The notes: generated by a model not told the origin, from the sequence alone. A stretch of 32,000 nt of DNA from Nitrososphaerales archaeon (GCA_035515635.1 DATJBB010000003.1:187536-219535), one strand, 5' to 3'; shown: positions 385-16,472, numbered from the stretch's first letter. A program made the numbers and translations.

Positions 385-447
385 CCCCGCGGAACCTCGC
401 CAGGCTCGCATCCAAAGGCCCCCGAGTTCAGTTGGGTTCAACAGAAA

Positions 448-459
448 CATTAAGTTATT
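448..459 (+). promoter_or_regulatory. TATA-like box for the ABC permease operon
   Basis: ATTAAGTTATTG is an AT-rich island in GC-rich DNA. It lies 24-35 nt upstream of GTG 483. Confidence 0.35.
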
Positions 460-482
460 GCGCAGCCGAAAATTCTACACCT

Positions 483-2224: not shown

Positions 2225-2726
2225 CCGCCCGGGCCGCCTTCCTCGGGGAGCGAGACGCCGGCCGCAGGAGGAAGCCCGAGACGCACGCCCCGTAGCGCCC
2301 CTTCACCTCTTCCGGGAGGCGGCTGTAGCTCCCCACCACCTTCCTGCAGGAGCCCGAGCCGCACTTGCACTCCATCGAGAACCCGTCCCAGCCGACGTTG
2401 GTGGAGTAGTCGAAGGTCACCTCCTCGCCTCGAGATATCCTTCTGAGCGCGACGATCCTCGTCCTGCCCATTATCACGCAGTTTGGCTCGCAGGAGTGGT
2501 TCATGAACCACCCCGGCGACCCCCGCTCGGGCAGGACGTATCTGTCGTAGTCGACCTGGAAGCAGTACTGCCAGACCTCTGCGGGTATGTCGTTGATCCA
2601 CCTCTCTTCCCCGCCGTAGTCCCAGACGAGCTCTCCCGACTCTATAATCCTGGCCGCGAAGACCCCCCTCCCCTTCGCCCCGGCGTCTCCTATCTCGAGG
2701 GCGGGGCCCGCGCTCGCCTCCGTCAA
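2202..2726 (-). CDS. SET-domain protein (putative lysine methyltransferase)
   Basis: Motifs GRGVFA, NHSCEPN and EEVTFDY are present, plus a post-SET-like Cys cluster CKCGSGSC. TTG start. The basic S/R-rich tail overlaps the convergent permease 3' end by 23 nt. Confidence 0.8.
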   Translation of the reverse strand: MTEASAGPALEIGDAGAKGRGVFAARIIESGELVWDYGGEERWINDIPAEVWQYCFQVDYDRYVLPERGSPGWFMNHSCEPNCVIMGRTRIVALRRISRGEEVTFDYSTNVGWDGFSMECKCGSGSCRKVVGSYSRLPEEVKGRYGACVSGFLLRPASRSPRKAARAASSRSRG

Positions 2727-2748
2727 ACGCTGCGGCCAGGCCGCCTAG

Positions 2749-2758
2749 CTTTATAGAG
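2749..2758. promoter_or_regulatory. Single TATA-like box shared by two divergent leaderless genes
   Basis: CTTTATAGAG is the only AT-rich element in the 60-nt gap. It is about 27 nt from the SET start (2726, minus) and about 30-34 nt from the regulator start (2787, plus). Confidence 0.4.
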
Positions 2759-2786
2759 GTGCCAGGTTAGAATCATCCGAACCAAT

Positions 2787-3554
2787 GTGGGGCAGCGAGC
2801 CGACCAGATCCTCCAGCCGTCGAAGGGCTGGGTGAGGGACGGAATCCTGTCGCTGCTCGCGAAGGGTCCCGCGACCGCCACCGAGGTAGCCAACAAGCTG
2901 GGGGTGTCGAAGGCCACCGTCTCCTACCACACAAAGGCGCTGATCCGCAGAGACATCATAGAGATCTCCGACATTCAGAGCATCCGCGGCGGGGTCTACA
3001 GCAAGACCTACTCCCTGAGGGGAGCGGGCCCTCCCCTCGCGGGCAGGCGGGGCGAGCAGGAGGGCGCGCTCTCGCACCTCGACGAGATATTCGAGAAGAT
3101 GATGATGACCTGGCACCTCGAGCCCAAGAGGAGGCCCTCCGACGAGATCGAGGTCTTCCTCTACCACCTCTTCAGGATACTCACCGAGGCCGATTCTCTC
3201 GACCGGGCCAGCCTCAACGAGTTCGGACAGCGCGTCGGGAACCTCATGATCTCTCCCGCCCTCAATGTCCCGACGATGAAGAGAGGGCTGAGGGAGCTGG
3301 CGGACTACCTCAGCACGGAGGGGATGGCCGAGGTCTCAGCCGAGGTTGCGAAGGGGCAGGAGGCGAGGCTCGTCTGCATGGGGTGCTTCGAGAACAGGAA
3401 CTACGGCGGACTTGTCTGCTCCTTCACGGAGGGGATGCTCACGGGGGCGATCAGGGCGAAGCACGGCGGGAGGCCGCAGCTTGAAAGGTTGAAACGGGCG
3501 GAGGGCGAGCCTGGCTGCGCATACGTAGTGAAGGTCAGGGGGTCCAGGTCTTGA
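2787..3554 (+). CDS. Transcription regulator: ArsR-like winged HTH plus a C-terminal V4R-like ligand-binding domain
   Basis: N-terminus ILSLLAKGPATATEVANKLGVSKATVSYHTKALIRRDII is a wHTH. C-terminus VCMGCFENRNYGGLVCSFTEGMLTGAIRAKHGG...EPGCAYVVKV fits the Cys/Gly pattern of V4R domains. GTG start. Confidence 0.6.
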   Translation: MGQRADQILQPSKGWVRDGILSLLAKGPATATEVANKLGVSKATVSYHTKALIRRDIIEISDIQSIRGGVYSKTYSLRGAGPPLAGRRGEQEGALSHLDEIFEKMMMTWHLEPKRRPSDEIEVFLYHLFRILTEADSLDRASLNEFGQRVGNLMISPALNVPTMKRGLRELADYLSTEGMAEVSAEVAKGQEARLVCMGCFENRNYGGLVCSFTEGMLTGAIRAKHGGRPQLERLKRAEGEPGCAYVVKVRGSRS

Positions 3555-4333
3555 GCAGGCGGAAGCGCGAGAAGGCCCGGCCCGCCCGCGCCGCGGTCGA
3601 GGGCGTCGGAGACGACAGGCCTCTGGACAAGAGCGCCTTCCTCTCGCTCCTCAAGCGTAGGCTCGAGGGCAAGTACCAGGACAAGCACCCGCTGATGGTC
3701 ATGCTCTACGCCGGAAAGCTCTCGCCCAAGCAGCTGCGCGCGTGGATAATCAACAGGTTCTACCTTCAGAAGAACATCCCTCTCAAAGACGCCGCCATCC
3801 TCTCGAACTGTCCCGAGACCGAGGTGAGGAAGCTGTGGATAGGCAGGATCCTGAAGCGCGAGGGCCTCGGCGGGAGCATCGGCGACGTGGAGGGCTGGCT
3901 GGGCTTCGCCGAGTCGGCGGGCGTCTCGAGGGACGACGTCCTAAGGGCGAGGTGCCTCCCCGGGGTGAGGTTCGCAGTGGACGGGTACGTCAACTTCGCG
4001 AGGAGGGCGGACTGGACTGAGGGGGTCGCCGCGTCACTCATCGAGTACTTCGCCAGGGGCGAGCTGATCAAGAGGATCGAGGCCTTCAAGCGCCACTACC
4101 CGTGGATAGAGCCGGCGGGCTACCGCTTCTTCATGTCGAGGCTGGGCCAACTCGACGAAGCCAACGAGACCACGCTGAGGATAGTCCTCCGCTACTGCGA
4201 AACTATGGAGAAGCAGATGCGGGCGATAGACGCGGCCGTCTCCATGGCGGACATCTACTGGAGCCTCCACGACGCGATATACGTCGCCTACGTCATCCAG
4301 GACAGGCCGCTCGCCGACTCGCTCGCCGGGTAG
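3551..4333 (+). CDS. pqqC: PqqC-family protein (homologue of pyrroloquinoline-quinone synthase) with substituted catalytic residues
   Basis: It is colinear with bacterial PqqC over about 230 aa. Shared blocks are NRFYLQKNIPLKDAAILSNCPE, RKLWIGRIL, LPGVRFAVDGYVNFARR, HYPWIEPAGYRFFMSRL and YWSLHDA. The TTG start overlaps the regulator stop (TTGA). Confidence 0.85.
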   Translation: MSRRKREKARPARAAVEGVGDDRPLDKSAFLSLLKRRLEGKYQDKHPLMVMLYAGKLSPKQLRAWIINRFYLQKNIPLKDAAILSNCPETEVRKLWIGRILKREGLGGSIGDVEGWLGFAESAGVSRDDVLRARCLPGVRFAVDGYVNFARRADWTEGVAASLIEYFARGELIKRIEAFKRHYPWIEPAGYRFFMSRLGQLDEANETTLRIVLRYCETMEKQMRAIDAAVSMADIYWSLHDAIYVAYVIQDRPLADSLAG

Positions 4334-4335
4334 GC

Positions 4336-6237
4336 TCAGGCGCGCTTCGTGGCCCTGCCAAGGGACCTGTTCTCGACCACCAGAAACACGACCACTGCCG
4401 CGAGCAGGCCAGAGGCGACCCAGGGGACGTAGCCCTCCCACGACTGCCCTCCGGGAGCCGAAACGGGCGAGAGCTGGTACGCCATCAGGGCGCCTGGCAC
4501 GGCCCCGGCGAACGCCCCGTACGCCGAAGTCCCCACCAGCTGGAACAGCCTGACCGTCCCGTCCACCCCCGCCCCGACCGTCGGGCTCTCGTAGAGCGGA
4601 GGACCTACGTATATGTCCACGACCTGCACGCCGCTCCCCGCGTCGAGGACGTGGATGCTCCCGTCCAGGCTCCCAGCGAAGATGAGCCCGTTGCTGGCCG
4701 TGAGCCAGCCTCTGTACGGGATGCTCTGCATGAAGTAGCTCCAGTCTACCTTCCCTGTTGACTCGTCGATGGCGTAGATCGTGGTGTTCGCCGTCTGCGC
4801 CTCCGGGCTGAGGCTCGTCACGCCCCAGTACTGGCTACCCTCTGAGCTCACTGAGGTGACCTGGCCGTAGGTGCACAGGTTGTAGGTCGCTACGTAGACC
4901 TTCGAGTAGGCGACGGCGATGTCCGACTCGACCGCCCCGTTCTCGCCGGGACACTGCTTGAACTGCTGTGTCGAGGGGTAGTTTATCCACGGCAGGCTCC
5001 CCGAGTAATTCTGGGTGACCACGTAGTTGGCGTTCCCAGTCAGGTTCCTCTCCACCGTGGGCGGGTCGAAGTACCAGAGGAGCCTCCCGGTCATCGCATC
5101 CAGCGCGTAGAGGTAGCCGTTCTTGCACGCCTTGAACACAGCCTCGTGCCCGTCGACAGCCCCTAGGACCGTGTTCCACCCGCAGTCGAAGTCGTAGAGG
5201 TCGTGGGGGGTCGTCTGATAGAACCAGACCATCCTCCCGTTCGTGACGTTAAGTGCGACAACGGAGTCGGCGTAGAGGTCGGGCCCAGGCCTGTACGTCC
5301 CGTTCCAGTCCGGGGAGGCCTGCGAGGTGGAGACGAAGACCATCCCGTGCCTCTCGTCCACCAGGGGCTCGCCGAAGCTCGGCCCCGCCCCTGCCACGGG
5401 CCCCGCGGAGCCCGGCGGGTTGAGGCTCATGGTCCCCCAGTCCCCGACGACGGGAGCGACGTTACCGTGGCAGGGTGGTGGGCATGACTCCTCGTCCCAG
5501 CTCTGGTTGCCGCCCGCGGCCGGGGTGACGTACCAGCGCCAGAGCAGGGCACCGGTCTGGATGTCGTACGCCGCCACGAAGCCCCTTCCGACATCGGTCC
5601 CCTCGGAGACGGAGCTCGTCCATATCATGGTGTTGCCGTCGAAGACGGGAGGCACCCCCGAGGAGTCGTAGAACCCCCCGTTCCCTGGGATGTCCTTGCA
5701 CAACCCGCCGATCTGCATGACCTGGTCGCCGGTGAGTGCGTTGAGCGCGTGGACGGAGCAGTCGGGCATGCTGACCCAGATGTCCCCCCGGTAGTAGTCG
5801 ATGCCGTGCATGTGCCCCGTCAGGGGCGAGAGCGGGAGGCCGGTTGTGTTGAGGTGGGCGGCGTACGACCAGAGCACCGAGCCCGTCTCGGCGTCCAGGG
5901 CGTAGACGGTGAGGTAGTTGGTGACGAGGTAGACCGTCCCGTTGACCACGAGCGGCGGCGATATCGAGCCCTGCCCTACCACCGCGAGGCCAGGGACGCT
6001 CGGGGCGACCGGGAAGGGGAACGTCCACGCCACCTGGAGGTCCTGGGCGTTCGATGCCCCTATCTGGTCCTGGGCGACGTAGTTCGTCGAGTTGGCGTTC
6101 GAGTTCATCGTCGTCCAGCTCGGCAAGGGTTGGCCGTTCGCCTGCGCGGCCGCGGGAGCCGCCGGCGACCCGAGCCCGACCAGCATCAGCACCAGCGAGG
6201 CCAAGGCGAGGGCCTTCCTTCCCCGGGACCGTTCCAT
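4336..6237 (-). CDS. Surface-anchored 8-bladed beta-propeller of the quinoprotein (PQQ) alcohol/methanol dehydrogenase type, paralogue 1
   Basis: Track ORF 4336..6354 trimmed to ATG 6237 (signal peptide MERSRGRKALALASLVLMLVGLG; a TATA-like box lies about 25-30 nt upstream). Blocks colinear with MxaF/ExaA are AWTFP..PLVVNGTVY..YALDAETGSVLW, SEGTDVGRGFVAAYDIQTGALLWRW, SPDWNGTYRPGPDLYADSVVALNVTNGRMVWFYQTTPHDLYDFDCGWN and KACKNGYLYALDAMTGRLLW. C-terminal TM: ASGLLAAVVVFLVV. Confidence 0.85.
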   Translation of the reverse strand: MERSRGRKALALASLVLMLVGLGSPAAPAAAQANGQPLPSWTTMNSNANSTNYVAQDQIGASNAQDLQVAWTFPFPVAPSVPGLAVVGQGSISPPLVVNGTVYLVTNYLTVYALDAETGSVLWSYAAHLNTTGLPLSPLTGHMHGIDYYRGDIWVSMPDCSVHALNALTGDQVMQIGGLCKDIPGNGGFYDSSGVPPVFDGNTMIWTSSVSEGTDVGRGFVAAYDIQTGALLWRWYVTPAAGGNQSWDEESCPPPCHGNVAPVVGDWGTMSLNPPGSAGPVAGAGPSFGEPLVDERHGMVFVSTSQASPDWNGTYRPGPDLYADSVVALNVTNGRMVWFYQTTPHDLYDFDCGWNTVLGAVDGHEAVFKACKNGYLYALDAMTGRLLWYFDPPTVERNLTGNANYVVTQNYSGSLPWINYPSTQQFKQCPGENGAVESDIAVAYSKVYVATYNLCTYGQVTSVSSEGSQYWGVTSLSPEAQTANTTIYAIDESTGKVDWSYFMQSIPYRGWLTASNGLIFAGSLDGSIHVLDAGSGVQVVDIYVGPPLYESPTVGAGVDGTVRLFQLVGTSAYGAFAGAVPGALMAYQLSPVSAPGGQSWEGYVPWVASGLLAAVVVFLVVENRSLGRATKRA

Positions 6238-6444
6238 TGAGCTCCCTCCCTCCCCGCTCCGCTTTAATCTTAGGCGGGGCCTGCGACGCCTTCCTCGACG
6301 AATAAGATTCCGCCGAGCGGGGGGCAGGTGCAGCCCCATTCCGAGGCGAAACAACCATTGACTATCACAACATCCCGGAGAACCTTACTCCAGGCTTGAC
6401 CCTTTCGGAAAGGTCTTAAGGCGAGAGGCTCCCGCCAGTGAAGA

Positions 6445-7935
6445 TTGGAAGCGCTCGCGAGGCGGCGCAAGTGGTTCTCGCTTTTTGCTGTCAACTTGGG
6501 CAACTTCGCTCCTCCCCTTGACACGGGGATAATGGCGCTAATCCTCCCGACCATAGCGGTCAGCCTAAAGGCGGACGTCCAGCTCGTGCTCTGGGTCCCC
6601 CTCGAGTCGCTGATCGTCACCGCCTGCTTCATGCCGATCTTCGGGAGGTTCTCCGACCGCCACGGGAGGAAGAGGTACTTCATCCTCGGGCTCGCCCTCT
6701 TCTCCCTGGGGTCGTACCTTTCGGGGAACTCCCTGACGATCTACGACCTCCTGATCTACAGGGTGGTACAAGCGCTCGGCGGGGCCTTCATCCTCTCCAA
6801 CGGGAGGGCGCTCATCGTGGACGCCTTCGAGCCCAAACAGAGGGGGTTCGCGCTCGGCACGCACATCTCGGTGATCTACACTGCGACGACCGTGGGGGTC
6901 GCCCTGACCGGGACGGTGATCGGGATAACCCAGGCCGTGGGCTGGAGGTACGTCTTCTATGCCAACGCCGCCATCGCCCTGATATCGATCCCCATCTCGT
7001 ACCTCGCACTGCGGGAGAGCCCGAAGAACGTCAACGTCAAGACAGACTGGCCGGGCGCGATCTTCCTCGCGGGGGCGCTGAGCTCCGCCCTGGTCGCCCT
7101 GACCGCCTACTCGAACGGGACCACCGCGATCAACATGTACATCCAGGACATCTACGTCCCGCTCCTCCACTTCTACATCTACCTGAACTCCGCCTACTCC
7201 ATCCCGGACTACGCGGTGGCTGCGGTTTGCATAGTCTCCACCGTCCTCTTCATCGCGCGCGAGCTCACCGCCCCCCAGCCCCTCATCAACTTCAAGTGGT
7301 TCAGGACTAACTCCATGTTCGCCTCGACCAACTTCTCAGCCCTCTTCGTGTACATGGCTCACTACAGCACGCTGATTCTGCTATCGTTCTACCTCGAGGA
7401 GATCAGGCTCATCTCTCCGTTCAACGCCGGGCTCATCCTCACCATAGAGCCGCTCGCGGTGACGGTCTTCGCCCTCTTCGGCGGCTGGATAGCCAGCAGG
7501 ACTGCCAGCCGGGACCCTGCGGTCGCCGGCCTCGTCATAGTCACCTTCGCTCTCCTCATGCTCAGCACGCTCTCCCAGACCTCCTCCACCTTCCTGATCA
7601 CATTCCTGCTGGGGATGCTCGGGGCTGGCGTCGGGATCTTCGCCCCGAGCAACACCAACGCCAACCTGGCATCCGTCCCGCCGGGCGACCGCGCCCTCGC
7701 CAACGGGATACTCGGGATGATGAGGCACACTGGGCAGGCTGTCAGCCTCGCCATAGGGAGCATAATCATCGGCGTCTTCCTTTTCGGGCTCACCGGGAGC
7801 GGCACCGTCCTCCCGTCTCAGTACATCTCGGCGCTAAGCCTGACTTTCCTTGTGGGCGCGGCGATGGCTGCAGTGGCCGCCGGCTTTGCCTTCCGGGGAA
7901 GGGAGCTCCTGGGCCCTACGCGCGAGGTTGCGTAG
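6445..7935 (+). CDS. MFS transporter, DHA2/EmrB-like (about 14 TM)
   Basis: MFS loop motif FGRFSDRHGRKRYF, with about 14 hydrophobic spans across 496 aa. TTG start, with TCTTAAG 25-31 nt upstream. The 3' end overlaps the convergent paralogue 2 by 20 nt. Confidence 0.85.
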   Translation: MEALARRRKWFSLFAVNLGNFAPPLDTGIMALILPTIAVSLKADVQLVLWVPLESLIVTACFMPIFGRFSDRHGRKRYFILGLALFSLGSYLSGNSLTIYDLLIYRVVQALGGAFILSNGRALIVDAFEPKQRGFALGTHISVIYTATTVGVALTGTVIGITQAVGWRYVFYANAAIALISIPISYLALRESPKNVNVKTDWPGAIFLAGALSSALVALTAYSNGTTAINMYIQDIYVPLLHFYIYLNSAYSIPDYAVAAVCIVSTVLFIARELTAPQPLINFKWFRTNSMFASTNFSALFVYMAHYSTLILLSFYLEEIRLISPFNAGLILTIEPLAVTVFALFGGWIASRTASRDPAVAGLVIVTFALLMLSTLSQTSSTFLITFLLGMLGAGVGIFAPSNTNANLASVPPGDRALANGILGMMRHTGQAVSLAIGSIIIGVFLFGLTGSGTVLPSQYISALSLTFLVGAAMAAVAAGFAFRGRELLGPTREVA

Positions 7936-9865
7936 GGGCCCGTCTCCTGACCAGGATGTACATGGCCAGGACCACCACCACCACCCCGAGGGCGATTATT
8001 ATCGGCTGCTCGAGCCCTGGGCCGAAGATATTCGAGCTGGTCGTCGTGCTAGGCCCTCCCGACCCCGATGTCGTGGTGCCTTGCCCGAGCCAGAACGCGG
8101 TCACGACTCCGGGCGTCGCGTTGGGCAGGTCGCCGCCTCCCGAGGGGGCGAAGAGCATCATGTTCCCGTTGCTGTCTTCCGCTATCGAGACGCCCGCCGC
8201 CCCGAGCCCGCCCAGCTCGTAGCTGCTCAGTAGCGCCCCGGTCGCGGCGTTGAGTTCATAGAGGATCCCCGCCCTGTCGATGGCGTAGAGGACCCCTCCG
8301 CTCACCACGGCCGAGGAGCCCTGGTACCTGTTGGGGATGTTGTAGTGCCAGATCGGCTGGCCGTTCGAGAGGTTGATCGCGTAGACGGTCCCGTTCTGCT
8401 TCGCCGTCGAGTCGCCGGTGTAGACGTAGCCGTTGATGGTCTGGCCCTTGTAGGGGTACGGCCCGGCCGTCATCACGCCGCAGCCGTTCTGTGACGCCAC
8501 GTACAGCGTGTTCCCCACCACCGCGGGTGACATCTCCACTCCGCCGTCTGGCCCGGGGCAGATCCTCTGGTTGTTCCCGAGCGAGGACTGGGACGCCTGC
8601 AGGTTGGCGGTGGTCGTGTTCCCGTCGTTGAGGTTGTTCAGCGCGGGCGCGCCCACAGCGATGGGCGAGTAGACGAGCTTCCCCGTCAGCGCGTTGAGGA
8701 CGTAGACGTGGTTGTCCTTCGAGGCCTGTATGACCACCGGGGTGTTCACCCCGCTTATCGTCGCGTTGGCGAGGGTGACGCTCCACCCGCCTTCGTGCTC
8801 CGTGAGGTCGTGCGAGGTCATCTGGTAGTACCAGAGCATCTTCCCGTCGGTGGTGTTGAGCGCCACGAGGCAATCGGTGTACAGGTTGGGGCCAGGCCTG
8901 AGCGAGGCGTCGTACCCGTCAGACGGGTGGCCAGTCGAGAAGTAGATCACTCCGGTCTTGTTGTTCACCGCCATCAGCCCCCAGGCCGCACCACCCCCGG
9001 CGTAGAACTGGCTCTGCGACGTCGTCCCCCAGTCGCCCTGGTACGGGGTGATGTTCCCCTGCGGCTGGCCGTAGTTGACGGTCGTCCCGTTCGCCAGTAG
9101 GACCTCATCCTGGGAGTCCCAGTTAGTGTCTATCGGGCCGGTCGACGGAGGCGTCGAGTACCACATCCAAGCCAGGCTCCTTGTGTGGATGTTGTACGCG
9201 GCGACGAACCCCCTCCCGCCGTAGTCGGTCGTCGAGGCGCGGACGATGAGGTTGTCCCCGACCAGTATGGGTGCCTTCTCTCCGTAGTAGGTGCCCGTGT
9301 TCCCGGCGATGTTGGCCGCGACCGGGGGTATCGTCCAGTCGATCGTGCCGTTGAGCGCGTTGAAAGCGTAGACCGTCGTGTCAGACGACATCACATAGAG
9401 CGTCTCGTTGTAGAGCGAGATCCCGCTTATCGTGTAGGCCCCGGACCACCACGACTCGCCGATGAACTTGGTCATGTTGATCTGGTAGTTCCAGATCTTG
9501 GCGCCTGTCGTGGTGCTGAGCGCTATGATGTTGTTGTACGGGGTTGCGATGTAGACTATCCCGTTCTCGACGAGGGGTTGGGTCTCTACGCCGAGCGCCG
9601 GCGGGGCCCCTGGGATATTGAACGGGTTGACGGGGATCTGGTAGAACCACCTCAGCCTGAGGTCGGAGACGTTGTTCACGTTGATCACGTTCTGCGGGTC
9701 GCTGTTGGTGTTCTGGAAGTTGTAAGCAGAAGCCGCCCAGTTGGAGTAGGACGCGGTGGCGGCGGAGGCCGACTGCGCATGGGTGATGGCGTTCGCAGAG
9801 CCTCCCGCCGCGAGCATGAGGGCCAGAACGGACAAGGTCGCCACCTTGCTCCGCGAGGACCTCAT
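7916..9865 (-). CDS. Surface-anchored quinoprotein-dehydrogenase-type beta-propeller, paralogue 2 (most divergent)
   Basis: Signal peptide MRSSRSKVATLSVLALMLAAGGSANA. Family blocks are TTDYGGRGFVAAYNIHTRSLAWMWY, GGGAAWG, LRPGPNLYTDCLVALNTTDGKMLWYYQMTSHDLTEHEGGWS and SKDNHVYVLNALTGKLVY. A T/S-rich linker leads to the C-terminal TM IIIALGVVVVVLAMYILV. Confidence 0.85.
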   Translation of the reverse strand: MRSSRSKVATLSVLALMLAAGGSANAITHAQSASAATASYSNWAASAYNFQNTNSDPQNVINVNNVSDLRLRWFYQIPVNPFNIPGAPPALGVETQPLVENGIVYIATPYNNIIALSTTTGAKIWNYQINMTKFIGESWWSGAYTISGISLYNETLYVMSSDTTVYAFNALNGTIDWTIPPVAANIAGNTGTYYGEKAPILVGDNLIVRASTTDYGGRGFVAAYNIHTRSLAWMWYSTPPSTGPIDTNWDSQDEVLLANGTTVNYGQPQGNITPYQGDWGTTSQSQFYAGGGAAWGLMAVNNKTGVIYFSTGHPSDGYDASLRPGPNLYTDCLVALNTTDGKMLWYYQMTSHDLTEHEGGWSVTLANATISGVNTPVVIQASKDNHVYVLNALTGKLVYSPIAVGAPALNNLNDGNTTTANLQASQSSLGNNQRICPGPDGGVEMSPAVVGNTLYVASQNGCGVMTAGPYPYKGQTINGYVYTGDSTAKQNGTVYAINLSNGQPIWHYNIPNRYQGSSAVVSGGVLYAIDRAGILYELNAATGALLSSYELGGLGAAGVSIAEDSNGNMMLFAPSGGGDLPNATPGVVTAFWLGQGTTTSGSGGPSTTTSSNIFGPGLEQPIIIALGVVVVVLAMYILVRRRAPTQPRA

Positions 9866-9960
9866 CGAGCGCGGCTCGACAGATGCCGAGTTAATAAGAG
9901 ATTCTCATATTCGAAGGCCCGAGCAACTTAGCTCGAAACGCCATAGCTGCAAACGGCCAC

Positions 9961-11985
9961 CTAATATCGACGCCTCGAGTAGACCCACCCGACCGCGAGG
10001 ACGACCGCAGCCGCGGCCGCCACGACGGCGACGACTTGGCTCTCGAGGATGACCTGGACCGCCCCTCCATGCTGGGCAGGGATGACGAGCGCCTGGACGA
10101 ACCCCGGGAACGGCGGGCCCCACCTGGTCGACCCCATGTCGGTCAGCACGACCGCCATCCTGCCGTTCGCGTCCTCCCCTATCGAGGGCTGGACGAGGAG
10201 GGACCCCCCGACGTCGATTGTCGAGATGAGCTTCCCCGACCCCTCGTCGAGCATCCTGAGCACGCCGTCCAGGGTCGAGACGTAGACCACACCCGCACTC
10301 ACGGTCAGCCCCCCGCGGTATGGCTGGTCGGGGATCTGGAAGGCCCACTTCACGGCGCCCGTCGAGGCGTCGATGGCGTAGACGGTCGCGTTGACAGGCC
10401 CGAGCGGGTGGATGGTGAGAATCTGCACCCCCCAAGAGAACTCCCAAGAAGTGACGTTCTCCGGGGTCTTGGGAGGCCCTACATCGGAGAAGTTGAAGAG
10501 CTTGGCGTCGTTGTAGACAGCCGCGAAGACAGTGTTCGAGGCGGGGTCGAACGCGAGGTCCGACTCGAGCGCGCCGGTGTCGCTCGGGTTCTGTACGTTT
10601 GGCTTGGCCGACGGGTACCCGGCCCAGTTGTACTTTGTCATCTGGGTCGCGTTGAGTGGGTCGAGGACTGACACGTTCTGGTAGTCGATGGCGGGGGGCT
10701 TGAGGTACCAGAGCATTTTCCCCGTCGTCGCGTCCAGGGCGAAGATGTACCCGCTCTTGCACCCCTTGTACACGACGGGCGTAGACGTCCCCCCTATGGT
10801 GACGTTGGCCAAGACCACGTTCCAAGAGCAGTCGAAGTCCCCGAGGGCGTGGGGCATCGCCTGGAACGCCCATATCACCCTCCCGTTCGTCATGTTCAGC
10901 GCCAGCACGGACGAGCTCCAAAGGTCCGGGCCAGGCCGGTAGGTGGCGTTCCAGTCAGGCCCCGGGACGTTCGTCCCTACGTATGCGACCTTGGTCTTCT
11001 CGTCGATTGCCCAAGCACCTCCCCACCCCGCGCTCGCCCCGGCGAAGCTCGTCGTTCCGTTGAACCCGAAATTCCCCCAGTCTCTCATCAGCATGCTGCT
11101 CAGCTCCGACTGGGGGAGCGACTTGAGGTCGACCGCGCCCGTGCCGTCGAATATGTACGCGTGCGTCATGTTCATGACCGAGTCGAGCGACCAGGCCGGG
11201 TCGCTCCCGTCCTGCGGCGGGATGACGTAGGTCCTCCACATGAAGGAGGGGTGGGGAGAAGAGACGTTCCACGCCTCCAAGAAGCCCCTCCCAGCGCTGT
11301 CGCCTTCGGTCACCGACGGCGAGAACAGGAGCACCCCGTCCCTCTGGTCTATCGCCATGGTCGGGGTGTCGACGTCGTAGAGCCCATAGCTGCCCTGAAT
11401 CCCGGCCTGTCGGTCGTTGATGAACGGGTCGAAGTCGAGTGCGATGTCGCCCGTCGTCGCCTTGATCGCGAACACCTGGTAGGTGTTCGAGACCACCCAG
11501 ACGAGGGGCTCGTCCCACAGCTGCGTCGTGATGAACATCGCATGGTAGTGGCCCAGCGGTATCCCCAGGGGCCCTGGCACCGAGGGCTGGAGGTACTGAG
11601 AGTAGTTGTCCATCAGCGGGAGGTCCCGGTACCACACGACGTCCCCGTTCTCCAGGTTGAGTGCGTAGAGGCGCGACCAGTTTGTTATCGCGTAGACCAC
11701 GCCCTCGTAGATGAGCGGGGTGGCCATCACGCCCTCGGCCATCTGGACCTGCCCGACGGGGGCGGCCGGGACCGGGAAAGTCCAGGCAGCCCCGAGCTGG
11801 CCGACGTTCTGGGCGTTGATGACGGTCTGGTTGTCGCTGCTCCAATTGAGCGGGTAGTTGTTCTCGGGCCCCGTCCAGTCGGCCGAATGCGCGGCCTCCT
11901 GGGCCGAGACGCCTGTCCCGCCCAGAAGCAAGAGCATCATCCCGGCGGCCGCGAAGACGACGGAGGCCGGCCTCGCCTTTCTCAT
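9961..11985 (-). CDS. Surface-anchored quinoprotein-dehydrogenase-type beta-propeller, paralogue 3
   Basis: Track ORF 9961..12060 trimmed to ATG 11985 (MRKARPASVVFAAAGMMLLLLGGTGVSAQEA). Family blocks are TEGDSAGRGFLEAWN, GPDWNATYRPGPDLWSSSVLALNMTNGRVIWAFQAMPHALGDFDCSWN and YKGCKSGYIFALDATTGKMLWY. C-terminal TM: VVAVVAAAAAVVLAVGWVY. Confidence 0.85.
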   Translation of the reverse strand: MRKARPASVVFAAAGMMLLLLGGTGVSAQEAAHSADWTGPENNYPLNWSSDNQTVINAQNVGQLGAAWTFPVPAAPVGQVQMAEGVMATPLIYEGVVYAITNWSRLYALNLENGDVVWYRDLPLMDNYSQYLQPSVPGPLGIPLGHYHAMFITTQLWDEPLVWVVSNTYQVFAIKATTGDIALDFDPFINDRQAGIQGSYGLYDVDTPTMAIDQRDGVLLFSPSVTEGDSAGRGFLEAWNVSSPHPSFMWRTYVIPPQDGSDPAWSLDSVMNMTHAYIFDGTGAVDLKSLPQSELSSMLMRDWGNFGFNGTTSFAGASAGWGGAWAIDEKTKVAYVGTNVPGPDWNATYRPGPDLWSSSVLALNMTNGRVIWAFQAMPHALGDFDCSWNVVLANVTIGGTSTPVVYKGCKSGYIFALDATTGKMLWYLKPPAIDYQNVSVLDPLNATQMTKYNWAGYPSAKPNVQNPSDTGALESDLAFDPASNTVFAAVYNDAKLFNFSDVGPPKTPENVTSWEFSWGVQILTIHPLGPVNATVYAIDASTGAVKWAFQIPDQPYRGGLTVSAGVVYVSTLDGVLRMLDEGSGKLISTIDVGGSLLVQPSIGEDANGRMAVVLTDMGSTRWGPPFPGFVQALVIPAQHGGAVQVILESQVVAVVAAAAAVVLAVGWVYSRRRY

Positions 11986-12093
11986 GCGACCACCACCTAG
12001 AGGCCCAGGTCGTCTCGATTTAGACCCTTTCCTCTCGAACCAATCCACGGAGCACCACACTCGTTAAAAGCCCGCTCCGGGGGCAAAGAATTC

Positions 12094-12840
12094 GTGGACT
12101 TCGCGGAGACAGTGCTCCTCTCGGCGATAATGGGCCTGTCGATCTTCCTCTCCCTCCCGATAGTCCTCCACAAGAACACCGACGCGCGCCGGACCAAGCT
12201 CCTGACCTCGGTGGCGATAGGCATACTGATCTTCCTGATGGGGGACGTCTTCACCGATGCGGCCGCTTCCCTGTACAACGGGTCGCTGTATGGCTACGGA
12301 TCCTCGCCCACGAACGACGTGGTGTTCGTGTCAGCCCTCTTTGCGGGTTTCTTGATACTCTTTGCAGCAGAGAACAGGTCGAAGGAGGGACTCACCCCGA
12401 CCGAGCTTTCGCTTGTCATCGCGGTAGGCATGGGTTTCCAGAACCTCACCGAGGGCCTGGTGTTCGGCTCCCTCGGAGTGGCGTTCGGCCTCTCCGGAGC
12501 CGCCCTCGTCGTACTCGTGGGCTTCATACTCCAGAACATCAGCGAGGGATTCCCAATCGCTTCCCCCTTCCTCGGCAAGGTCCAAGGCAAGACCGGCCTG
12601 ATCGTGGTGCTGTACCTGGTTGGGGGCGTCCCGACGATCATAGGGGGTTCGATAGGGCACTTCTACAACTCGTCGGTCTTCGACCTGGCCTTTGACGGCC
12701 TCGCCATCGGGGCGATCCTCTACGCCATCCTCCCCATGCTCAAGGCGCTCTTCAGGGAGTCCTCGAGGGACCTCCTGCGCCTCACCTATCTGGGGGTCTT
12801 CGTGGGCTTCGTGATAGGCTTCCTGGTGAACCTGCTGTGA
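12094..12840 (+). CDS. ZIP-family (ZupT-like) divalent metal carrier with an atypical metal-site motif
   Basis: About 8 hydrophobic spans. The two ZIP signature helices read GFQNLTEGLVFG and ILQNISEGFPIA, in place of the usual HNxPEG. GTG start, with GTTAAAAG 25-30 nt upstream. Confidence 0.7.
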   Translation: MDFAETVLLSAIMGLSIFLSLPIVLHKNTDARRTKLLTSVAIGILIFLMGDVFTDAAASLYNGSLYGYGSSPTNDVVFVSALFAGFLILFAAENRSKEGLTPTELSLVIAVGMGFQNLTEGLVFGSLGVAFGLSGAALVVLVGFILQNISEGFPIASPFLGKVQGKTGLIVVLYLVGGVPTIIGGSIGHFYNSSVFDLAFDGLAIGAILYAILPMLKALFRESSRDLLRLTYLGVFVGFVIGFLVNLL

Positions 12841-12852
12841 GGGAGGCGAACG

Positions 12853-14646
12853 ATGAACAGGCGTAGATTCATCGAGGTACTGGGCGGCGGGGCAATAGGG
12901 GTGGCTGCGCTCGGGTACGGCGTCTCAAGGCTGCTCCCACCGAAGCACGCCGAGCCATCAGGGAAGCTCGACCCACAGTCCCTGACGAAGTTCGTCGACC
13001 CGCTCCCCATCCCAGCCGTGATGGTTCCCACGGCCCCCGGAGGCACTTACGAGGTGAAGATGACCCAGATCAGCCAGAAGCTCCACGACCAGCTCCCCGC
13101 AACCACCCTGTGGGGGTACAACGGGTCCTCTCCCGGCCCATCCTTCGAGGCGGTCAAGGGGACGCCCATCTCGGTCACCTACCTCAACGAGCTCCCGACG
13201 ACGCACCTCTTCGAGGACGCGATCGACCATACCATCGCCCACGTCCACGGCTACCCGGACGTCCGGACGGTCGTCCACCTCCACGGCGCCGAGGTCAAGG
13301 CGGACAGCGACGGCAACCCGACGGCCTGGTTCTCCTTCGCCTTCGAGACGACGGGGCAGGGGTGGTCGCACCAGACCTACACCTACCCAAACTCGCAGGA
13401 GGCAGCAACCCTCTGGTACCACGACCACGCGATAGGGACGACCCGGCTCAACCTCTGCGCCGGCCTCGCGGGCTTCTACTTCCTCAGGGACCCGACCCTC
13501 CAGTTCGAGGCAAGCCTCCCCGGGGGCTCTGACGACAGGCCGCACGCCGGAGCGGGCCCCTACGAGGTGCCCCTCATGATTCAAGACAGGCTCTTCAACG
13601 CCGACGGCTCGATCCTCTATCCGGACCAGGGGGTCAATCCCGACGTCCATCCGCAGTGGATACCCGAGTACTTCGGGGACACGATCCTCGTCAACGGGAA
13701 GGTCTGGCCCTACCTCGAAGTCGAGCCCCGCAAGTACAGGTTCCGGTTCCTCGACGCGTCGAACGCGCGCTTCTACGACCTCTCGTTCGCGAACAAGCCG
13801 GTGACCATCAACCAGATCGGGACAGACGGCGGCTACCTCCCCGAACCGGTGGCGATCAACGACGTCTTCATCGCCCCGGCGGAGCGGGTCGACGCTGTCG
13901 TCGACTTCTCCGCGATGGAGGTCGGCGACACCGCGGTCCTCTACAACACCGCCCCGGCGCCTTATCCCGGCGGGGACGTCCCAGACCCCGACACCATCGG
14001 CCAGATAATGCAGTTCAGGGTGGTGGAGGCGAAGGGGAAGGACAACAGCGTCCTGCCCACCTCCATGGTGCCAGTGCCCCAGCTCCCGTTCCCCGGGGAG
14101 TCGGTCAGCGCTACGAGGAGCCTCATCCTCATCGAGTACGACACGGACGCCGGGCCGGTCACCGGCCTACTCAACAACGCCGCCTACGACAACACGATAT
14201 CGGAGAACCCCGTCCTCGGCTCGACCGAGATCTGGGAGCTGATCAACCTCACCGAGGATGCCCACCCGATCCACCTCCACCTCGTCCAGTTCCAGATATT
14301 CAACCGACAGGAGTTCGATGCCGACAAGTACCTGGCCGACTACCAGACGGCCAACCCTGACATGTCCCCCGGCTCGGGGCCTGGGACAGTCCTCGACCCC
14401 ACGCCGTACTTCGAGGACGACCCCTTCCTGGTCACACCTCAGGAGGCCGGGTGGAAGGACACCGTCAAGGCCTACCCGGAGGTGATCACCAGGCTGATCG
14501 TCAGGTTCGCCCCGAGGGACGGGACCGACTTCGCCTTCGACGCCACCGCCGCCCCCAACTACATCTGGCACTGCCACATCCTCGAACACGAGGACAACGA
14601 GATGATGAGGCCGTACCAGGTCCTCCCGCGGACAGTGGCCCCCTGA
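12853..14646 (+). CDS. Tat-exported three-domain multicopper oxidase (CotA/bilirubin-oxidase-like laccase)
   Basis: Twin-arginine leader MNRRRFIEVLGGGAIGVAALG. All four copper motifs are present: VHLHG, WYHDHA, HPIHLHL and HCHILEHEDNEMM. GGGAGG lies 6 nt before the ATG. Confidence 0.9.
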   Translation: MNRRRFIEVLGGGAIGVAALGYGVSRLLPPKHAEPSGKLDPQSLTKFVDPLPIPAVMVPTAPGGTYEVKMTQISQKLHDQLPATTLWGYNGSSPGPSFEAVKGTPISVTYLNELPTTHLFEDAIDHTIAHVHGYPDVRTVVHLHGAEVKADSDGNPTAWFSFAFETTGQGWSHQTYTYPNSQEAATLWYHDHAIGTTRLNLCAGLAGFYFLRDPTLQFEASLPGGSDDRPHAGAGPYEVPLMIQDRLFNADGSILYPDQGVNPDVHPQWIPEYFGDTILVNGKVWPYLEVEPRKYRFRFLDASNARFYDLSFANKPVTINQIGTDGGYLPEPVAINDVFIAPAERVDAVVDFSAMEVGDTAVLYNTAPAPYPGGDVPDPDTIGQIMQFRVVEAKGKDNSVLPTSMVPVPQLPFPGESVSATRSLILIEYDTDAGPVTGLLNNAAYDNTISENPVLGSTEIWELINLTEDAHPIHLHLVQFQIFNRQEFDADKYLADYQTANPDMSPGSGPGTVLDPTPYFEDDPFLVTPQEAGWKDTVKAYPEVITRLIVRFAPRDGTDFAFDATAAPNYIWHCHILEHEDNEMMRPYQVLPRTVAP

Positions 14647-14705
14647 CCAGAGGAGAGCCTTCTGTCCCCAACAGAGCCGCCTGCCTCCTGGACCGGGGAG
14701 GGTTC

Positions 14706-16472
14706 CTGACCACGGCCTCGCCGCGCCTCGCTCCGGACCGCCGAACCAGGGCCAAGTCCGCGCTGGCGCTCTGGCTCCTCCTTGTGGCGGGCATCGCGTC
14801 GGCCTCCGTCTCTGTCCGCCACGCCGACGCCTTCCAGGCCAGCGGCCAGTACGCCGCGACGGTCATCGGCCAGGGTAACTTCACCTCCAGAATCGCCGGT
14901 CTCTCGCCGCAGAACCTCTACCAGCCCTTCAGGCCTACCTTCGATTCCTCTGGCGACCTCTGGGTCGGGGACGAGGCAGACCACCGGGTCGTCGAGTTCA
15001 TGCCCCCGCTGACCGACGGAGAGCCTGCATCCCTCGAGATCGGGGAGCTGAACTTCGCGGAAGGGGCGACCAACGGCTCGCTCCCCGCTTCCCAGGACAC
15101 CCTCTTCGGCCCCGTCGCCGTGGCCTTCGACAAGTCGGGAGACCTCTGGGTGGCCGACTTCGTCTACAACCGGGTCACCGAATACAAGCCTCCTTTCGAG
15201 GACGGGATGAACGCCTCCCTGGAGCTCGGCCAGCCTGCGGGAAGCTCGCAGTTCACGAAGCATCCTGCCCAGTCCCCCTCGATGGGCCTGAACGCGCCGG
15301 TCGCTCTGGCCTTCGACTCGGCTGGGGACCTCTGGGTCGTCGACAGGGGGAACAACAGGCTCGTGGAGTACGCCCCTCCCTTCGTCTCGGGGCAGACGCC
15401 CTCACTCGTCGTGGGACAGCCCTCTCTGAACAGCAGCGCAGGTGCCACCACCCAGTCCGGGCTCAACGGCCCTGAGAGCGCGGCCTTCGACTCCTCCGGG
15501 AACCTCTGGGTGGTCGACGAGGGGAACGACCGGGTCCTCGAGTACGGAAACTCTTCCCTTGAGAGCGACGGTCCGCGAGCAGTCCTCGAGCTGGGCCAGC
15601 GCGCAGGTCCCGGCGAGTTCGTCTCCAACGGCTCCGAGGTCTCCCGGTCCACGTTCGGCGCCCCCATGGGAGTGGCCGTCTCTCCCTGGGGCGACCTACT
15701 CGTCTCCGACCGTTCGGGGAACAGAATCCTGGGGTTCGAACCTCCCTTCTCGGACGGGATGAACGCATCCTACGAGATAGGCCAGCATGCCGGCCCCTCC
15801 CAGTTCGCCGCAGCGCCCGCATCCGTCACGCAGAACGGGCTCCACAACCCCCTCGGTCTCGCCTTCGACCCCTCTGGGAACGTCTGGGTGGCCGACCAGT
15901 TGAACGCTCGGGTCCTTGAGTTTAGCTCGCTGGCAGCGGTCACCTCTGGTACGGACGTCTCCGCGACCGCGACGGGCGCTTCTGACAACGAGTCCTCCAC
16001 GACCGGGCTGTCCATGTCGGTGAAGGAGACGTCCTCCGCGTCGGTCAACTTCTACTCGGCGAAGCTCTCCGCGCAGCCTCCCGGGTCGGGCACCCTGCCC
16101 TTGTCCGGGAGTCGGGTCTTCTACCAGGCGAAGGTGTCAGGCGGGAGCGGGGACGTCGCGATCTGCGTCCGCGACCCTCGGGCGTCCAACTCGACGTCGA
16201 TGATGTTCTTCGACGGCGCCTCGTGGATCGGCGCGGGCGACCTCAAGGCAACAAGCGGGGGTTCGATATGCGGCGACGTCCCGAGCGCCACTTTGAGCTC
16301 CCTCACCCTCCTCGCCGTAACCGAGGCGCCCGGCCCGCCCCTAGCTTCGCCTTTGCTCCAGGCGGCGGCCCTCCTGGCCGCTGCAGTCGCGTTGGGCACG
16401 ATATCCTACATCGTCCTGAAGACGCGCCCGGCGGGGTCTAAGACGGGGCAACGACGAGAAATCCTAGTATGA
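14706..16472 (+). CDS. Anchored six-bladed NHL-repeat beta-propeller with a C-terminal beta-rich domain and TM anchor; start codon unresolved
   Basis: Same frame as track ORF 14451..16472. There are six repeats of the type FDSSGNLWVVDEGNDRVLEY. The signal-peptide-like segment is RRTRAKSALALWLLLVAGIASASVSVRHADA and the C-terminal TM is LLQAAALLAAAVALGTISYIVL. No ATG/GTG/TTG occurs between the laccase stop and GTG 14784. The start given is a hypothetical CTG preceded by GGGGAGGG (see findings). Confidence 0.75.
   Translation: MTTASPRLAPDRRTRAKSALALWLLLVAGIASASVSVRHADAFQASGQYAATVIGQGNFTSRIAGLSPQNLYQPFRPTFDSSGDLWVGDEADHRVVEFMPPLTDGEPASLEIGELNFAEGATNGSLPASQDTLFGPVAVAFDKSGDLWVADFVYNRVTEYKPPFEDGMNASLELGQPAGSSQFTKHPAQSPSMGLNAPVALAFDSAGDLWVVDRGNNRLVEYAPPFVSGQTPSLVVGQPSLNSSAGATTQSGLNGPESAAFDSSGNLWVVDEGNDRVLEYGNSSLESDGPRAVLELGQRAGPGEFVSNGSEVSRSTFGAPMGVAVSPWGDLLVSDRSGNRILGFEPPFSDGMNASYEIGQHAGPSQFAAAPASVTQNGLHNPLGLAFDPSGNVWVADQLNARVLEFSSLAAVTSGTDVSATATGASDNESSTTGLSMSVKETSSASVNFYSAKLSAQPPGSGTLPLSGSRVFYQAKVSGGSGDVAICVRDPRASNSTSMMFFDGASWIGAGDLKATSGGSICGDVPSATLSSLTLLAVTEAPGPPLASPLLQAAALLAAAVALGTISYIVLKTRPAGSKTGQRREILV
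14913..15923 (+). repeat. Six tandem NHL-type blades (protein-level repeat, period about 58-64 aa) inside the CDS
   Basis: The core [FV]-D/S-x-S/W-G-[DN]-[LV]-[WL]-V-x-D-x4-R-[VIL]-x-[EG]-[FY] recurs at ORF residues about 159-183, 218-245, 280-307, 338-365, 402-429 and 464-491. Between blades lie PPFxDGMNASxExGQ linkers. Confidence 0.8.

Follow-up and report, generated by a model that had tools for sequence, protein, structure and literature searches.

A regulator, a PqqC-family gene and membrane-tethered propellers of the PQQ-dehydrogenase type share a conserved neighbourhood in a soil Nitrososphaerales archaeon

Does a 13.7-kb run of genes in a soil archaeon encode a quinoprotein oxidation system, and if so, where would its cofactor come from? 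The question is raised by a 32,000-nucleotide stretch of a Nitrososphaerales archaeon assembly (GCA_035515635.1, DATJBB010000003.1:187536-219535), referred to here as the window. Between positions 2,787 and 16,472 it carries genes for a winged helix-turn-helix (wHTH) regulator, a PqqC-family protein, three propellers of the pyrroloquinoline quinone (PQQ) dehydrogenase type, a major facilitator superfamily (MFS) transporter, a ZIP-like carrier, a multicopper oxidase (MCO) and an NHL-repeat propeller. An original prediction, made from the sequence without database searches, had read these nine genes as a single extracytoplasmic island. The reading that we prefer, and hold to be moderately probable, is that the propellers, two of the three with a lanthanide-type site, are PQQ-type dehydrogenases tethered to the membrane outside the cytoplasm, which pass electrons to an acceptor encoded elsewhere.

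All nine genes are present where they had been predicted, including a 4 bp overlap between the regulator and the PqqC-like gene. The window is 65% GC, and third-position GC is 0.85-0.92 in all nine open reading frames, the coding signature of a 65% GC genome. An independent gene caller applied to the source contig (European Nucleotide Archive (ENA) ERZ27256514, k141_4624356, 185,782 bp; the same DNA is also on a second ENA contig of 145,521 bp) gives products of 255 aa (regulator), 260 aa (PqqC-like), 633, 649 and 674 aa (propellers 1 to 3), 496 aa (MFS), 248 aa (ZIP-like), 597 aa (MCO) and 562 aa (NHL). Judged from its homologues, the region belongs to a soil Nitrososphaerales archaeon of the Gagatemarchaeaceae type (Group I.1c), close to the Candidatus (Ca.) Gagatemarchaeum metagenome-assembled genomes (MAGs). 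The nearest homologues of the PqqC-like protein and the propellers are all MAG proteins of Nitrososphaerales or Thaumarchaeota, and a 'Nitrososphaerales archaeon' MAG encodes a protein with 100% identity to the ZIP-like one. The closest loci in the species-representative genome set are those of MFD09222 (Nitrososphaerota), palsa_1368 and AcS1-13; the latter two are Gagatemarchaeaceae (Group I.1c), and AcS1-13, which is listed under Ca. Gagatemarchaeum, is from acid topsoil and has 62% GC. A haloarchaeal origin, an idea that came from the high GC content, is ruled out by the homologues.

The three propeller genes lie on the minus strand at 4336..6237 (propeller 1), 7916..9865 (propeller 2) and 9961..11985 (propeller 3), and their products match PF01011 at 190.2, 151.1 and 132.3 bits respectively, against a gathering cutoff of 26.7. 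The best solved relatives, at ~20-24% identity, are the lanthanide enzymes XoxF (6DAM) and PedH (6ZCV/6ZCW) and the quinohaemoprotein alcohol dehydrogenases (ADHs); XoxF 6DAM matches propeller 2 at E 1.5e-32 and PedH 6ZCW matches propeller 3 at E 2.8e-20. A structure model was made for propeller 1 with AlphaFold2 (79 input sequences; pLDDT 90.9, pTM 0.87), and the top 30 PDB entries in a Foldseek search are all PQQ alcohol, methanol or sorbose dehydrogenases (E 1.8e-35 to 1e-27, TMt 0.61-0.76). BamB (YfgL), with which the propellers share PQQ-like repeats, appears at rank 31 or lower (E 1e-17, TMq 0.42) and covers less than half of the protein, and the BamB equivalog models give 56-64 bits, their cutoffs being 285-423. 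Because the 30 best folds are all PQQ dehydrogenases and BamB falls far below them, a BamB-like scaffold is ruled out by the fold search and the hidden Markov model (HMM) scores. On the evidence of sequence and fold, placement of the propellers with catalytic quinoproteins of the MxaF/XoxF/ExaA type is supported, as had been proposed.

Hydropathy and the propeller 1 model place an N-terminal signal helix and a single C-terminal transmembrane (TM) helix on the propellers, in agreement with the predicted trio of exported and anchored paralogues. Propeller 1 is thus modelled as an eight-bladed quinoprotein-type domain with a C-terminal anchor, and in propeller 2 a Ser/Thr-rich stalk precedes the TM segment at residues 613-643. 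The three share ~30% identity among themselves and are old paralogues; for each, relatives have orthologues at 65-72% identity. We note that a fourth PQQ-type propeller of 762 aa (TIGR03075, 85.9 bits) is encoded on the same contig ~5 kb (4.7-7 kb) to the left of the window, so that the propeller cluster is larger than the 13.7-kb island. It stands among the genes of the next 10 kb on that side (positions 2142-7785 of locus L034, ~1.7-7 kb left of the window) together with an aldo-keto reductase, a methyltransferase and an SBP_bac_1 solute-binding protein with a twin-arginine translocation (Tat) signal.

The pockets were compared by aligning the three propellers with XoxF, PedH and 107 homologues, with 74 sequences in the propeller 1 orthologue set. 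The eight-bladed fold and the PHD...D-x-D, RPG(P)D/NLY and RGF blocks are common to the archaeal proteins and to PedH (6ZCV/6ZCW) and XoxF (6DAM, 4MAE). The colinear catalytic blocks described earlier are present as quoted, RPGP(D/N)L(Y/W) among them, except that PHD reads PHA in propeller 3 and the acid equivalent to Glu177 is out of register in propeller 1. In MxaF numbering, the catalytic-base position Asp303 is Asp in propeller 1 (71 of the 74 orthologues) and propeller 3 and Glu in propeller 2; the floor position Trp243 is aromatic in all three (Phe, Trp and Trp); and the position of Arg331 in methanol dehydrogenase (MDH) is occupied by Lys, as predicted and as in 1KB0, 8GY2 and the type II/III ADHs. 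An extra Asp two residues past the catalytic Asp, giving D-x-D, is a lanthanide signature. Propellers 1 and 3 have D-F-D at this site (D349-F-D351 in propeller 1), identical to PedH, whereas the calcium-type 1KB0 and 8GY2 have D-Y-T and propeller 2 has E-H-E.

Many of the other contacts are replaced. The vicinal Cys103-Cys104, already noted as absent from all three, reads Pro-Leu in propeller 1, Ser-Gly in propeller 2 and Ile-Pro in propeller 3; Arg109 is His, Ser and His in the same order; Glu177 is Thr in propeller 1, where the acids are a Glu at -6 and an Asp at -3 relative to the Arg, and Asp in the other two; Asn261 is Gln in propeller 1, His (His306) in propeller 2 and Val in propeller 3, where an Asn lies one residue earlier; and Asn394 is Glu throughout. 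The substitute residues are nearly invariant inside each orthologue group. H144, H345, D346, F350, K372, E437 and R509 are each found in 74 of the 74 propeller 1 orthologues, D351 in 73, D349 in 71 and Q306 in 69. Such near invariance is the pattern of a working pocket rather than a decayed one, and the alignments show strong purifying selection on the pockets.

A further feature is a pair of cysteines, C352 and C371 in propeller 1, of which one directly follows D-F-D and the other directly precedes the conserved Lys; both occupy the same columns in propeller 3. Both are present in all 101 of the D-F-D-type homologues and both are absent from the six propeller 2-type sequences. The pair may form a disulfide, perhaps one that stands in for the vicinal Cys-Cys. 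Relative to PedH and XoxF, then, the archaeal proteins have this Cys pair flanking D-F-D and Lys instead of Cys-Cys, carry Lys at Arg331, His at Arg109, Gln at Asn261 and Glu at Asn394, possess an additional membrane anchor at the C terminus, and are without a cytochrome cL/c550 partner. Propeller 2 and its six orthologues depart together, with Asp at the Glu177 position, His at Asn261, E-H-E in place of D-x-D and no Cys pair, which suggests a site with a metal or a chemistry other than that of propellers 1 and 3.

A more complex relationship is seen with the PqqC-family gene (3551..4333, plus strand; PF03070), whose product has no TM segment or signal peptide in a hydropathy scan and is taken to be cytoplasmic. 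It aligns nearly without gaps to Klebsiella pneumoniae PqqC (1OTW; 208 bits, ~45% identity over 225 residues) and is ~42-48% identical to bacterial PqqC, so that the original description of a close PqqC homologue holds for the sequence overall; it fails for the pocket. The score against TIGR02111 (PQQ synthase, EC 1.3.3.11) is 226.5 bits, below the cutoff of 240, and the nearest bacterial PqqC proteins, from Chloroflexota, score 314 and 320 bits and sit in pqqB-C-D-E operons, whereas the archaeal gene lies outside any such operon. Sixteen pocket positions, in K. pneumoniae numbering, were tabulated over 120 homologues. Nearly all bacterial PqqC proteins keep Y23, H24, R50, Y53, Q54, K60, R80, H84, Y128, T146, E147, R157, Y175, R179 and K214, the exceptions including a few with Tyr at 24 or Gln at 84. 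The window protein keeps Y23, R50, Q54, K60, R80, Y128, E147, R157 and R179, and has the changes H24Q, Y53L, H84R, T146I, Y175F and K214M.

These six changes, seen relative to the 1OTV/1OTW structures, are fixed or nearly fixed in the archaeal clade. Among ~60 archaeal sequences H24 is replaced by Q, I, V or L, Y53 by L, F or M, T146 by I, F or Y, Y175 by F (Ile in two) and K214 by M, L or A, and H84 is R in every one. An exhaustive PqqC search over 1.84 billion cluster representatives confined the R84/F175 pattern to P0362, the sole full-length representative that has it, and a single fragment. Full-length bacterial representatives, and those with PqqC fused to PqqD or to PqqB, keep H24, Y53, H/Q84, Y175 and K214; the exceptions among full-length representatives are few, scattered and divergent, and are without the R84/F175 pair. 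In the work of Klinman and of Schwarzenbacher, H84 is reportedly central to catalysis and K214 reportedly contacts the cofactor, roles that agree with the constancy of both residues in bacterial sequences. In PqqC, Y175, H154 and R157 shift into the active site upon substrate binding, and PQQ is held tightly (PMC2294125). Since the basic carboxylate-binding residues R50, K60, R80, R157 and R179 all remain and R84 brings a further one, a polyanionic ligand resembling a quinone is still plausible for this pocket. A di-iron, heme-oxygenase-like oxidase of the CADD type was considered and rejected: the score is 59.8 bits for CADD but 226.5 for PqqC, and His and Tyr residues are lost with no metal ligands gained.

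The regulator gene (2787..3554, plus strand) ends in a stop codon that overlaps the start of the PqqC-like gene by 4 bp (TTGA). Its product was previously described as a wHTH-V4R protein, of which the first half stands, in that profile searches identify an HTH_20/ArsR-type (HTH_20/HTH_5) domain; no V4R domain is detected by Pfam. Residues 14-247 align with positions 12-235 of the 236-position MsvR model NF053755, although the score of 62.7 bits is well under the cutoff of 220, and we therefore refer to it as MsvR-like. The C-terminal domain is Cys-rich (Cys197, 200, 211 and 244). A homologous regulator adjoins the PqqC-like gene in all archaeal loci examined; that of Caldarchaeum is 27% identical (E 2e-14) and lies on the opposite side of the PqqC-like gene.

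Comparison of related loci shows which parts of the region travel together. Among them, five are from Gagatemarchaeaceae (L001 and L003-L006), one is from a Nitrososphaerales genome with 56% PqqC identity (L002), one from another Nitrososphaerales lineage (L031) and two from Caldarchaeum (L029 and L030). Those five Gagatemarchaeaceae loci keep, at 65-85% amino-acid identity, the order ABC permeases (unmatched in L003), SET-domain gene, regulator, PqqC-like gene, propeller 1, MFS and propeller 2, with the MFS gene syntenic at 66-75% identity. L004 and L005 have propeller 3, whereas L001, L003 and L006 do not. A ZIP-like gene follows the propellers in L001, L003, L005 and L006, and an MCO gene follows it in L003; there is no MCO match after the ZIP-like gene in L001 and L006, the next gene in L001 having no Cu-oxidase domain on record, and the NHL gene has no match in any related locus. 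Farther out, L002 and L031 keep only the regulator, the PqqC-like gene and a convergent propeller, which in L002 is the propeller 1 orthologue at 50% identity, and in Caldarchaeum the regulator adjoins the PqqC-like gene with propellers ~6 kb to either side. No ZIP, MCO or NHL gene is found in the distant loci that keep this core.

The robust unit is thus the regulator and the PqqC-like gene with a propeller nearby, and the proposed genetic tie between the propellers and a PqqC-family gene is conserved out to Caldarchaeales. The expectation of a neighbourhood conserved across archaea holds for this core and not for the ZIP, MCO and NHL genes, and the single 13.7-kb island is not supported by the comparison: the ZIP-like gene is nearby within the family only, the MCO gene in L003 only and the NHL gene nowhere. 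From these alignments the link to the ZIP, MCO and NHL genes appears inseparable from inherited synteny.

The genes outside this core are largely as they had been described. The MFS gene (6445..7935, plus strand) does lie between propellers 1 and 2, and its product matches MFS_1 at 136.7 bits, has hydrophobic segments along the whole 496 aa in a simple hydropathy scan, and finds its best NCBIfam match in EmrB/DHA2 (142.9 bits, below the cutoff of 230), consistent with a DHA2-type transporter. Identification of the next gene as a ZIP-like carrier (12094..12840, plus strand) is backed by fold and by the names of its homologues and finds no echo in its own Pfam profile: the protein has no Pfam match, including to the ZIP model PF02535, and a PDB sequence search returns noise only, whereas its homologues are named ZIP family zinc transporters or ZupT (JGI), a few of them carry PF02535, and the top 10 PDB matches to an AlphaFold2 model (pLDDT 70) are all BbZIP. 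The family is widespread, with 1,238 matches, the best from Nitrososphaerales MAGs. In common with BbZIP (5TSA) and ZupT it is predicted to have eight helices and two x-N-x-x-E-G motifs on consecutive helices, and it differs from them in having Gln for both motif His. The motifs, QNLTEG (116-121) and QNISEG (147-152), are invariant in 62 homologues. Replacement of both His by Gln leaves an all oxygen/amide ligand set, which hints that the carrier moves a hard cation rather than zinc.

The MCO gene (12853..14646, plus strand) encodes a three-domain laccase/CueO/PhsA-like protein (PF07732, PF00394, PF07731; PhsA-like 294.6 bits and CueO 173.9 bits, both below cutoffs). The RRRF motif agrees with the predicted Tat export, and the four copper motifs are HLHG, WYHDH, HPIHLH and HCHILEHEDNEM. 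It begins 12 bp after the ZIP-like gene, with GGGAGG 6 nt upstream of its ATG. The NHL gene (14706..16472, plus strand) encodes, as predicted, a secreted NHL-repeat propeller (94.2 bits) with a C-terminal TM anchor at 519-547. Its gene call runs from a GTG at 14784 to 16472, a start that cuts the signal peptide; the n- and h-regions of that peptide are encoded from ~14706, just past GGGGAGGG (14695-14702), and there is no ATG, GTG or TTG between the MCO stop and 14784 (window 14647-14784). The start is either CTG at 14706 or GTG at 14451, the latter overlapping the MCO gene by 196 nt. Of the proposed operon linked by Shine-Dalgarno sequences, the GGGAGG before the MCO gene bears out the ZIP-MCO part; the MCO-NHL gap of at least 59 bp and the ambiguous NHL start leave the rest in doubt.

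The original prediction held that this was not a described system, and that is not so at the level of genome surveys. Aylward and Santoro (2020; PMC7300363) describe 21 PQQ-dehydrogenase families in heterotrophic marine Thaumarchaeota (HMT), most with signal peptides and TM domains and none with Cys-Cys, with DYD/DXD motifs; they note a 'PQQ synthase' and count the dehydrogenases among those genes that are most strongly expressed, and a 2026 paper again reports high expression in the marine group. For Gagatemarchaeaceae, Sheridan et al. (2023; PMC10640624) describe up to eight per genome in adjacent pairs or trios and infer gain of pqqC in the ancestor of mesophilic Thaumarchaeota, and their MAG AcS1-13 is syntenic with the window. 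The published clusters are of the same phylum (in the 2023 paper the same family) and share with the window adjacent propellers, signal and TM segments, a single pqqC, the absence of Cys-Cys and DYD/DXD-type motifs. In the covered passages of both papers pqqC is treated as a working PQQ synthase. Those passages and the supplementary files searched (PMC10640624, PMC7300363) make no mention of a remodelled PqqC pocket, a sub-threshold score or a lack of partner genes, nor of the regulator/PqqC-like/propeller 1 core, the Cys pair, the ZIP, MCO and NHL neighbours or a ZIP-like carrier with Gln motifs, and the PMC10640624 supplement has no per-gene pqq table. The system itself is therefore already known from surveys, and the orphan, non-canonical PqqC is a concrete discrepancy in that literature.

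In the scenario that we prefer, the region specifies a quinoprotein oxidation module acting outside the cytoplasmic membrane. Three eight-bladed propellers with the PQQ alcohol/methanol-dehydrogenase fold carry signal peptides and are tethered to the outer face by one C-terminal helix each. Each would bind a PQQ-type cofactor over an aromatic floor (Phe or Trp at MxaF Trp243), with the conserved Asp, Glu in propeller 2, as catalytic base and Lys in the place of MDH Arg331. Propellers 1 and 3 would use a lanthanide through D-F-D, and propeller 2 (Asp/His/Glu-His-Glu) another metal; the substrates may be alcohols, aldehydes or sugars of soil organic matter. In the conserved core, the MsvR-like regulator gene overlaps that of a cytoplasmic PqqC-family protein, convergent with propeller 1, and that protein keeps a basic pocket (R50, K60, R80, R157, R179) that would hold a tricarboxylate quinone. 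Because near-constant residues have been lost and there is no pqqA/B/D/E nearby, its role is better described as cofactor finishing, salvage or handling than as proven canonical PQQ synthesis. The MFS protein might, more speculatively, move cofactor or substrates, and the ZIP-like carrier, the Tat-exported MCO and the NHL propeller are a neighbouring metal/oxidase unit, with at most a putative coupling to the rest.

Several results weigh against this scenario, those on the supply of cofactor among them. No pqqA/B/D/E gene was found by Pfam/NCBIfam annotation in the window, as had been predicted, or within 10 kb beyond either end, and searches of 314 kb of archaeal loci by tblastn with Chloroflexota PqqB, PqqD and PqqE gave no match, while PqqC, as a control, matched every one of the loci. 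A PqqA motif scan, which was positive in the proteobacterial controls L012 and L018, found no canonical PqqA in any archaeal locus, although its sensitivity is low, the Chloroflexota controls being missed as well. The PqqC-like protein is below the TIGR02111 equivalog cutoff, with five near-constant residues (H24, Y53, H84, Y175 and K214) all replaced. No electron acceptor, whether cytochrome c or cupredoxin, is encoded in the window, again as predicted, or in 10 kb beyond either end; a cupredoxin gene was sought at the left window edge, where L001 has one, and a minus-strand secreted-protein gene was found there instead. In the propellers the vicinal Cys-Cys and the Arg109, Asn261 and Asn394 contacts are replaced in all three, and the metal ligands Glu177 and Asn261 are not retained as such, the Glu177 position of propeller 1 being Thr. 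They score 208.1, 206.9 and 137.2 bits against the methanol/ethanol family model TIGR03075, well below its cutoff of 480; they form a distinct branch outside the characterised subfamily. They also match the 'acido-empty-quinoprotein' model TIGR04528, with which, as with BamB, they share PQQ-like repeats and weak HMM matches only. To our knowledge no archaeal enzyme of the quinoprotein fold has been characterised biochemically. The published HMT metabolic table lists pqqC alone under 'PQQ synthesis' (PMC7300363).

A real though minor possibility is that no PQQ is made at all, and that surface apo-quinoproteins are loaded with bacterial PQQ or a late precursor, in the manner of E. coli glucose dehydrogenase, with the PqqC-like protein, regulator, importers and MFS transporter sensing, salvaging or finishing the quinone. 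The lone PqqC-like gene, with no detectable pqq partners here and pqqC only in the HMT table, would fit this account, as would the contrast with the nearest bacterial PqqC genes in their complete operons, the retention of the basic pocket residues while H24, Y53, H84, Y175 and K214 were lost, the tight binding of PQQ by PqqC (PMC2294125), and the ABC importers that adjoin the PqqC-like gene wherever an archaeal locus has flanking sequence; yet the other pqq genes may lie elsewhere in the genome or be too divergent for detection, the importer types differ by lineage, which argues against one shared function, and PQQ used outside the cell needs no import. We would also suggest, as a tentative and rather doubtful proposal, that the Nitrososphaerota/Caldarchaeales 'PqqC' is a separate, non-canonical clade that either completes a precursor taken up from elsewhere or produces or handles a modified quinone. 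The clade pocket has R84 and F175 and no K214, H24 or Y53, and the gene comes in every case with an MsvR-like regulator, with propellers adjacent or within ~6 kb.

That the propellers work without PQQ, as 'empty' homologues with another cofactor, metal-only chemistry or a binding role, and that the PqqC-family protein has an unrelated function, seems to us unlikely. The many replaced PQQ and metal contacts, the TIGR03075 scores far below cutoff, the matches to the 'empty' model and the non-canonical PqqC-like protein could all be read in this way; against it, the catalytic Asp, D-x-D, Lys and aromatic floor are kept and nearly invariant, the 'empty' model scores just 98-170 bits with a cutoff of 650, and the PqqC-family gene stays by a propeller down to 56% PqqC identity, and within ~6 kb in Caldarchaeales, an arrangement not easily accounted for unless a quinone is shared. 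The reading of the whole 13.7 kb as one functional island, for example in phenolic or humic oxidation with the laccase as oxidant or electron sink, concerns extent and not cofactor, and can hold with any of the others; we consider it quite unlikely. The close spacing of the ZIP-like and MCO genes with GGGAGG between, the recurrence of the ZIP-like gene after the propellers in four related loci and of the MCO gene in L003, and the extracytoplasmic or membrane location of all the products speak for it, but that synteny occurs only among genomes ~65-85% identical and may be inherited order, the MCO match is missing after the ZIP-like gene in L001 and L006, the distant core loci are without ZIP, MCO and NHL, and the ZIP-like family is widespread. 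Membrane-tethered PQQ-type dehydrogenases thus remain the reading that we prefer.

Among various other features of these loci, we note that ABC importer genes adjoin the PqqC-like gene in every archaeal locus with flanking sequence: L001 (5312-8709), L029 (3836-7130 and 9561-12515), L031 (3320-7107), L032 (3306-7150), L002 (12761-16732) and the window (432-2224). They are sugar-type in some lineages and PhnS2/PhnU2-like in others, and a small Cupredoxin_1-like gene lies inside the ABC operon in L001 and Caldarchaeum (L029/L030); a common function for them is a lead only. DUF929 genes are near the propellers in L031 (11317-13886) and L002 (18162-19193), accompanied in L031 by a membrane cytochrome b (Ni_hydr_CYTB/formate-dehydrogenase gamma-like) that the window does not have and that is a possible electron route to quinone. 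In the Chloroflexia control L009 (12563-13900), a gene for TnpB, an IS200/IS605-type RNA-guided nuclease, directly follows pqqE.

The SET-domain gene (2202..2726, minus strand; PF00856, 59.8 bits), whose product is lysine methyltransferase-like, stands immediately upstream of the regulator in every Gagatemarchaeaceae locus and occupies the same place at 66-73% identity in L001 and L003-L007; within the family it is kept to the left of the regulator, and it probably lies outside the system. At the left end (1-430, minus strand) is a secreted-protein gene with the signal peptide MGTAVLLVLLFLTVFASAPRAYA..., which starts near 400 and runs off the end; it corresponds to a 226-aa gene of L034 and is without a Pfam family. 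The remaining genes of the window, by Pfam/NCBIfam, encode ABC permeases and an ABC ATPase, DUF4443, HEAT, methyltransferase, SDR, DUF371, MIP, GAF, MFS and 2-hydroxyacid dehydrogenase proteins, a mevalonate-diphosphate-decarboxylase-like protein (19520-20494, minus strand) with a weak mevalonate-3-kinase C-terminal domain match, and a 793-aa PF04185 phosphoesterase of the phospholipase C/acid phosphatase family (26778-29159, plus strand), the last two unrelated to the finding. Suf genes, a Rieske protein and succinate dehydrogenase are encoded in the next 10 kb to the right. Scans of the window for tRNA genes and Rfam families found nothing.

Acid soils, peat and the dark ocean harbour abundant Thaumarchaeota that do not oxidise ammonia, and surveys place PQQ-type dehydrogenases centrally in their predicted energy metabolism. 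To this the window adds the pocket residues, a signature of the lanthanide type in two of its three enzymes and a conserved regulator/PqqC-like/propeller unit. The orphan, non-canonical PqqC casts doubt on the assumption in the literature that cells with a lone pqqC make PQQ. If the separate-clade proposal is true, the main energy-yielding dehydrogenases of archaea abundant in soil and the deep sea would depend on an undescribed cofactor route, and the Cys pair and altered PQQ contacts would fit a cofactor or binding mode unlike that of the bacterial enzymes. If the cofactor is scavenged or different, the view of how these archaea depend on bacterial neighbours and on the availability of rare earths would change as well.

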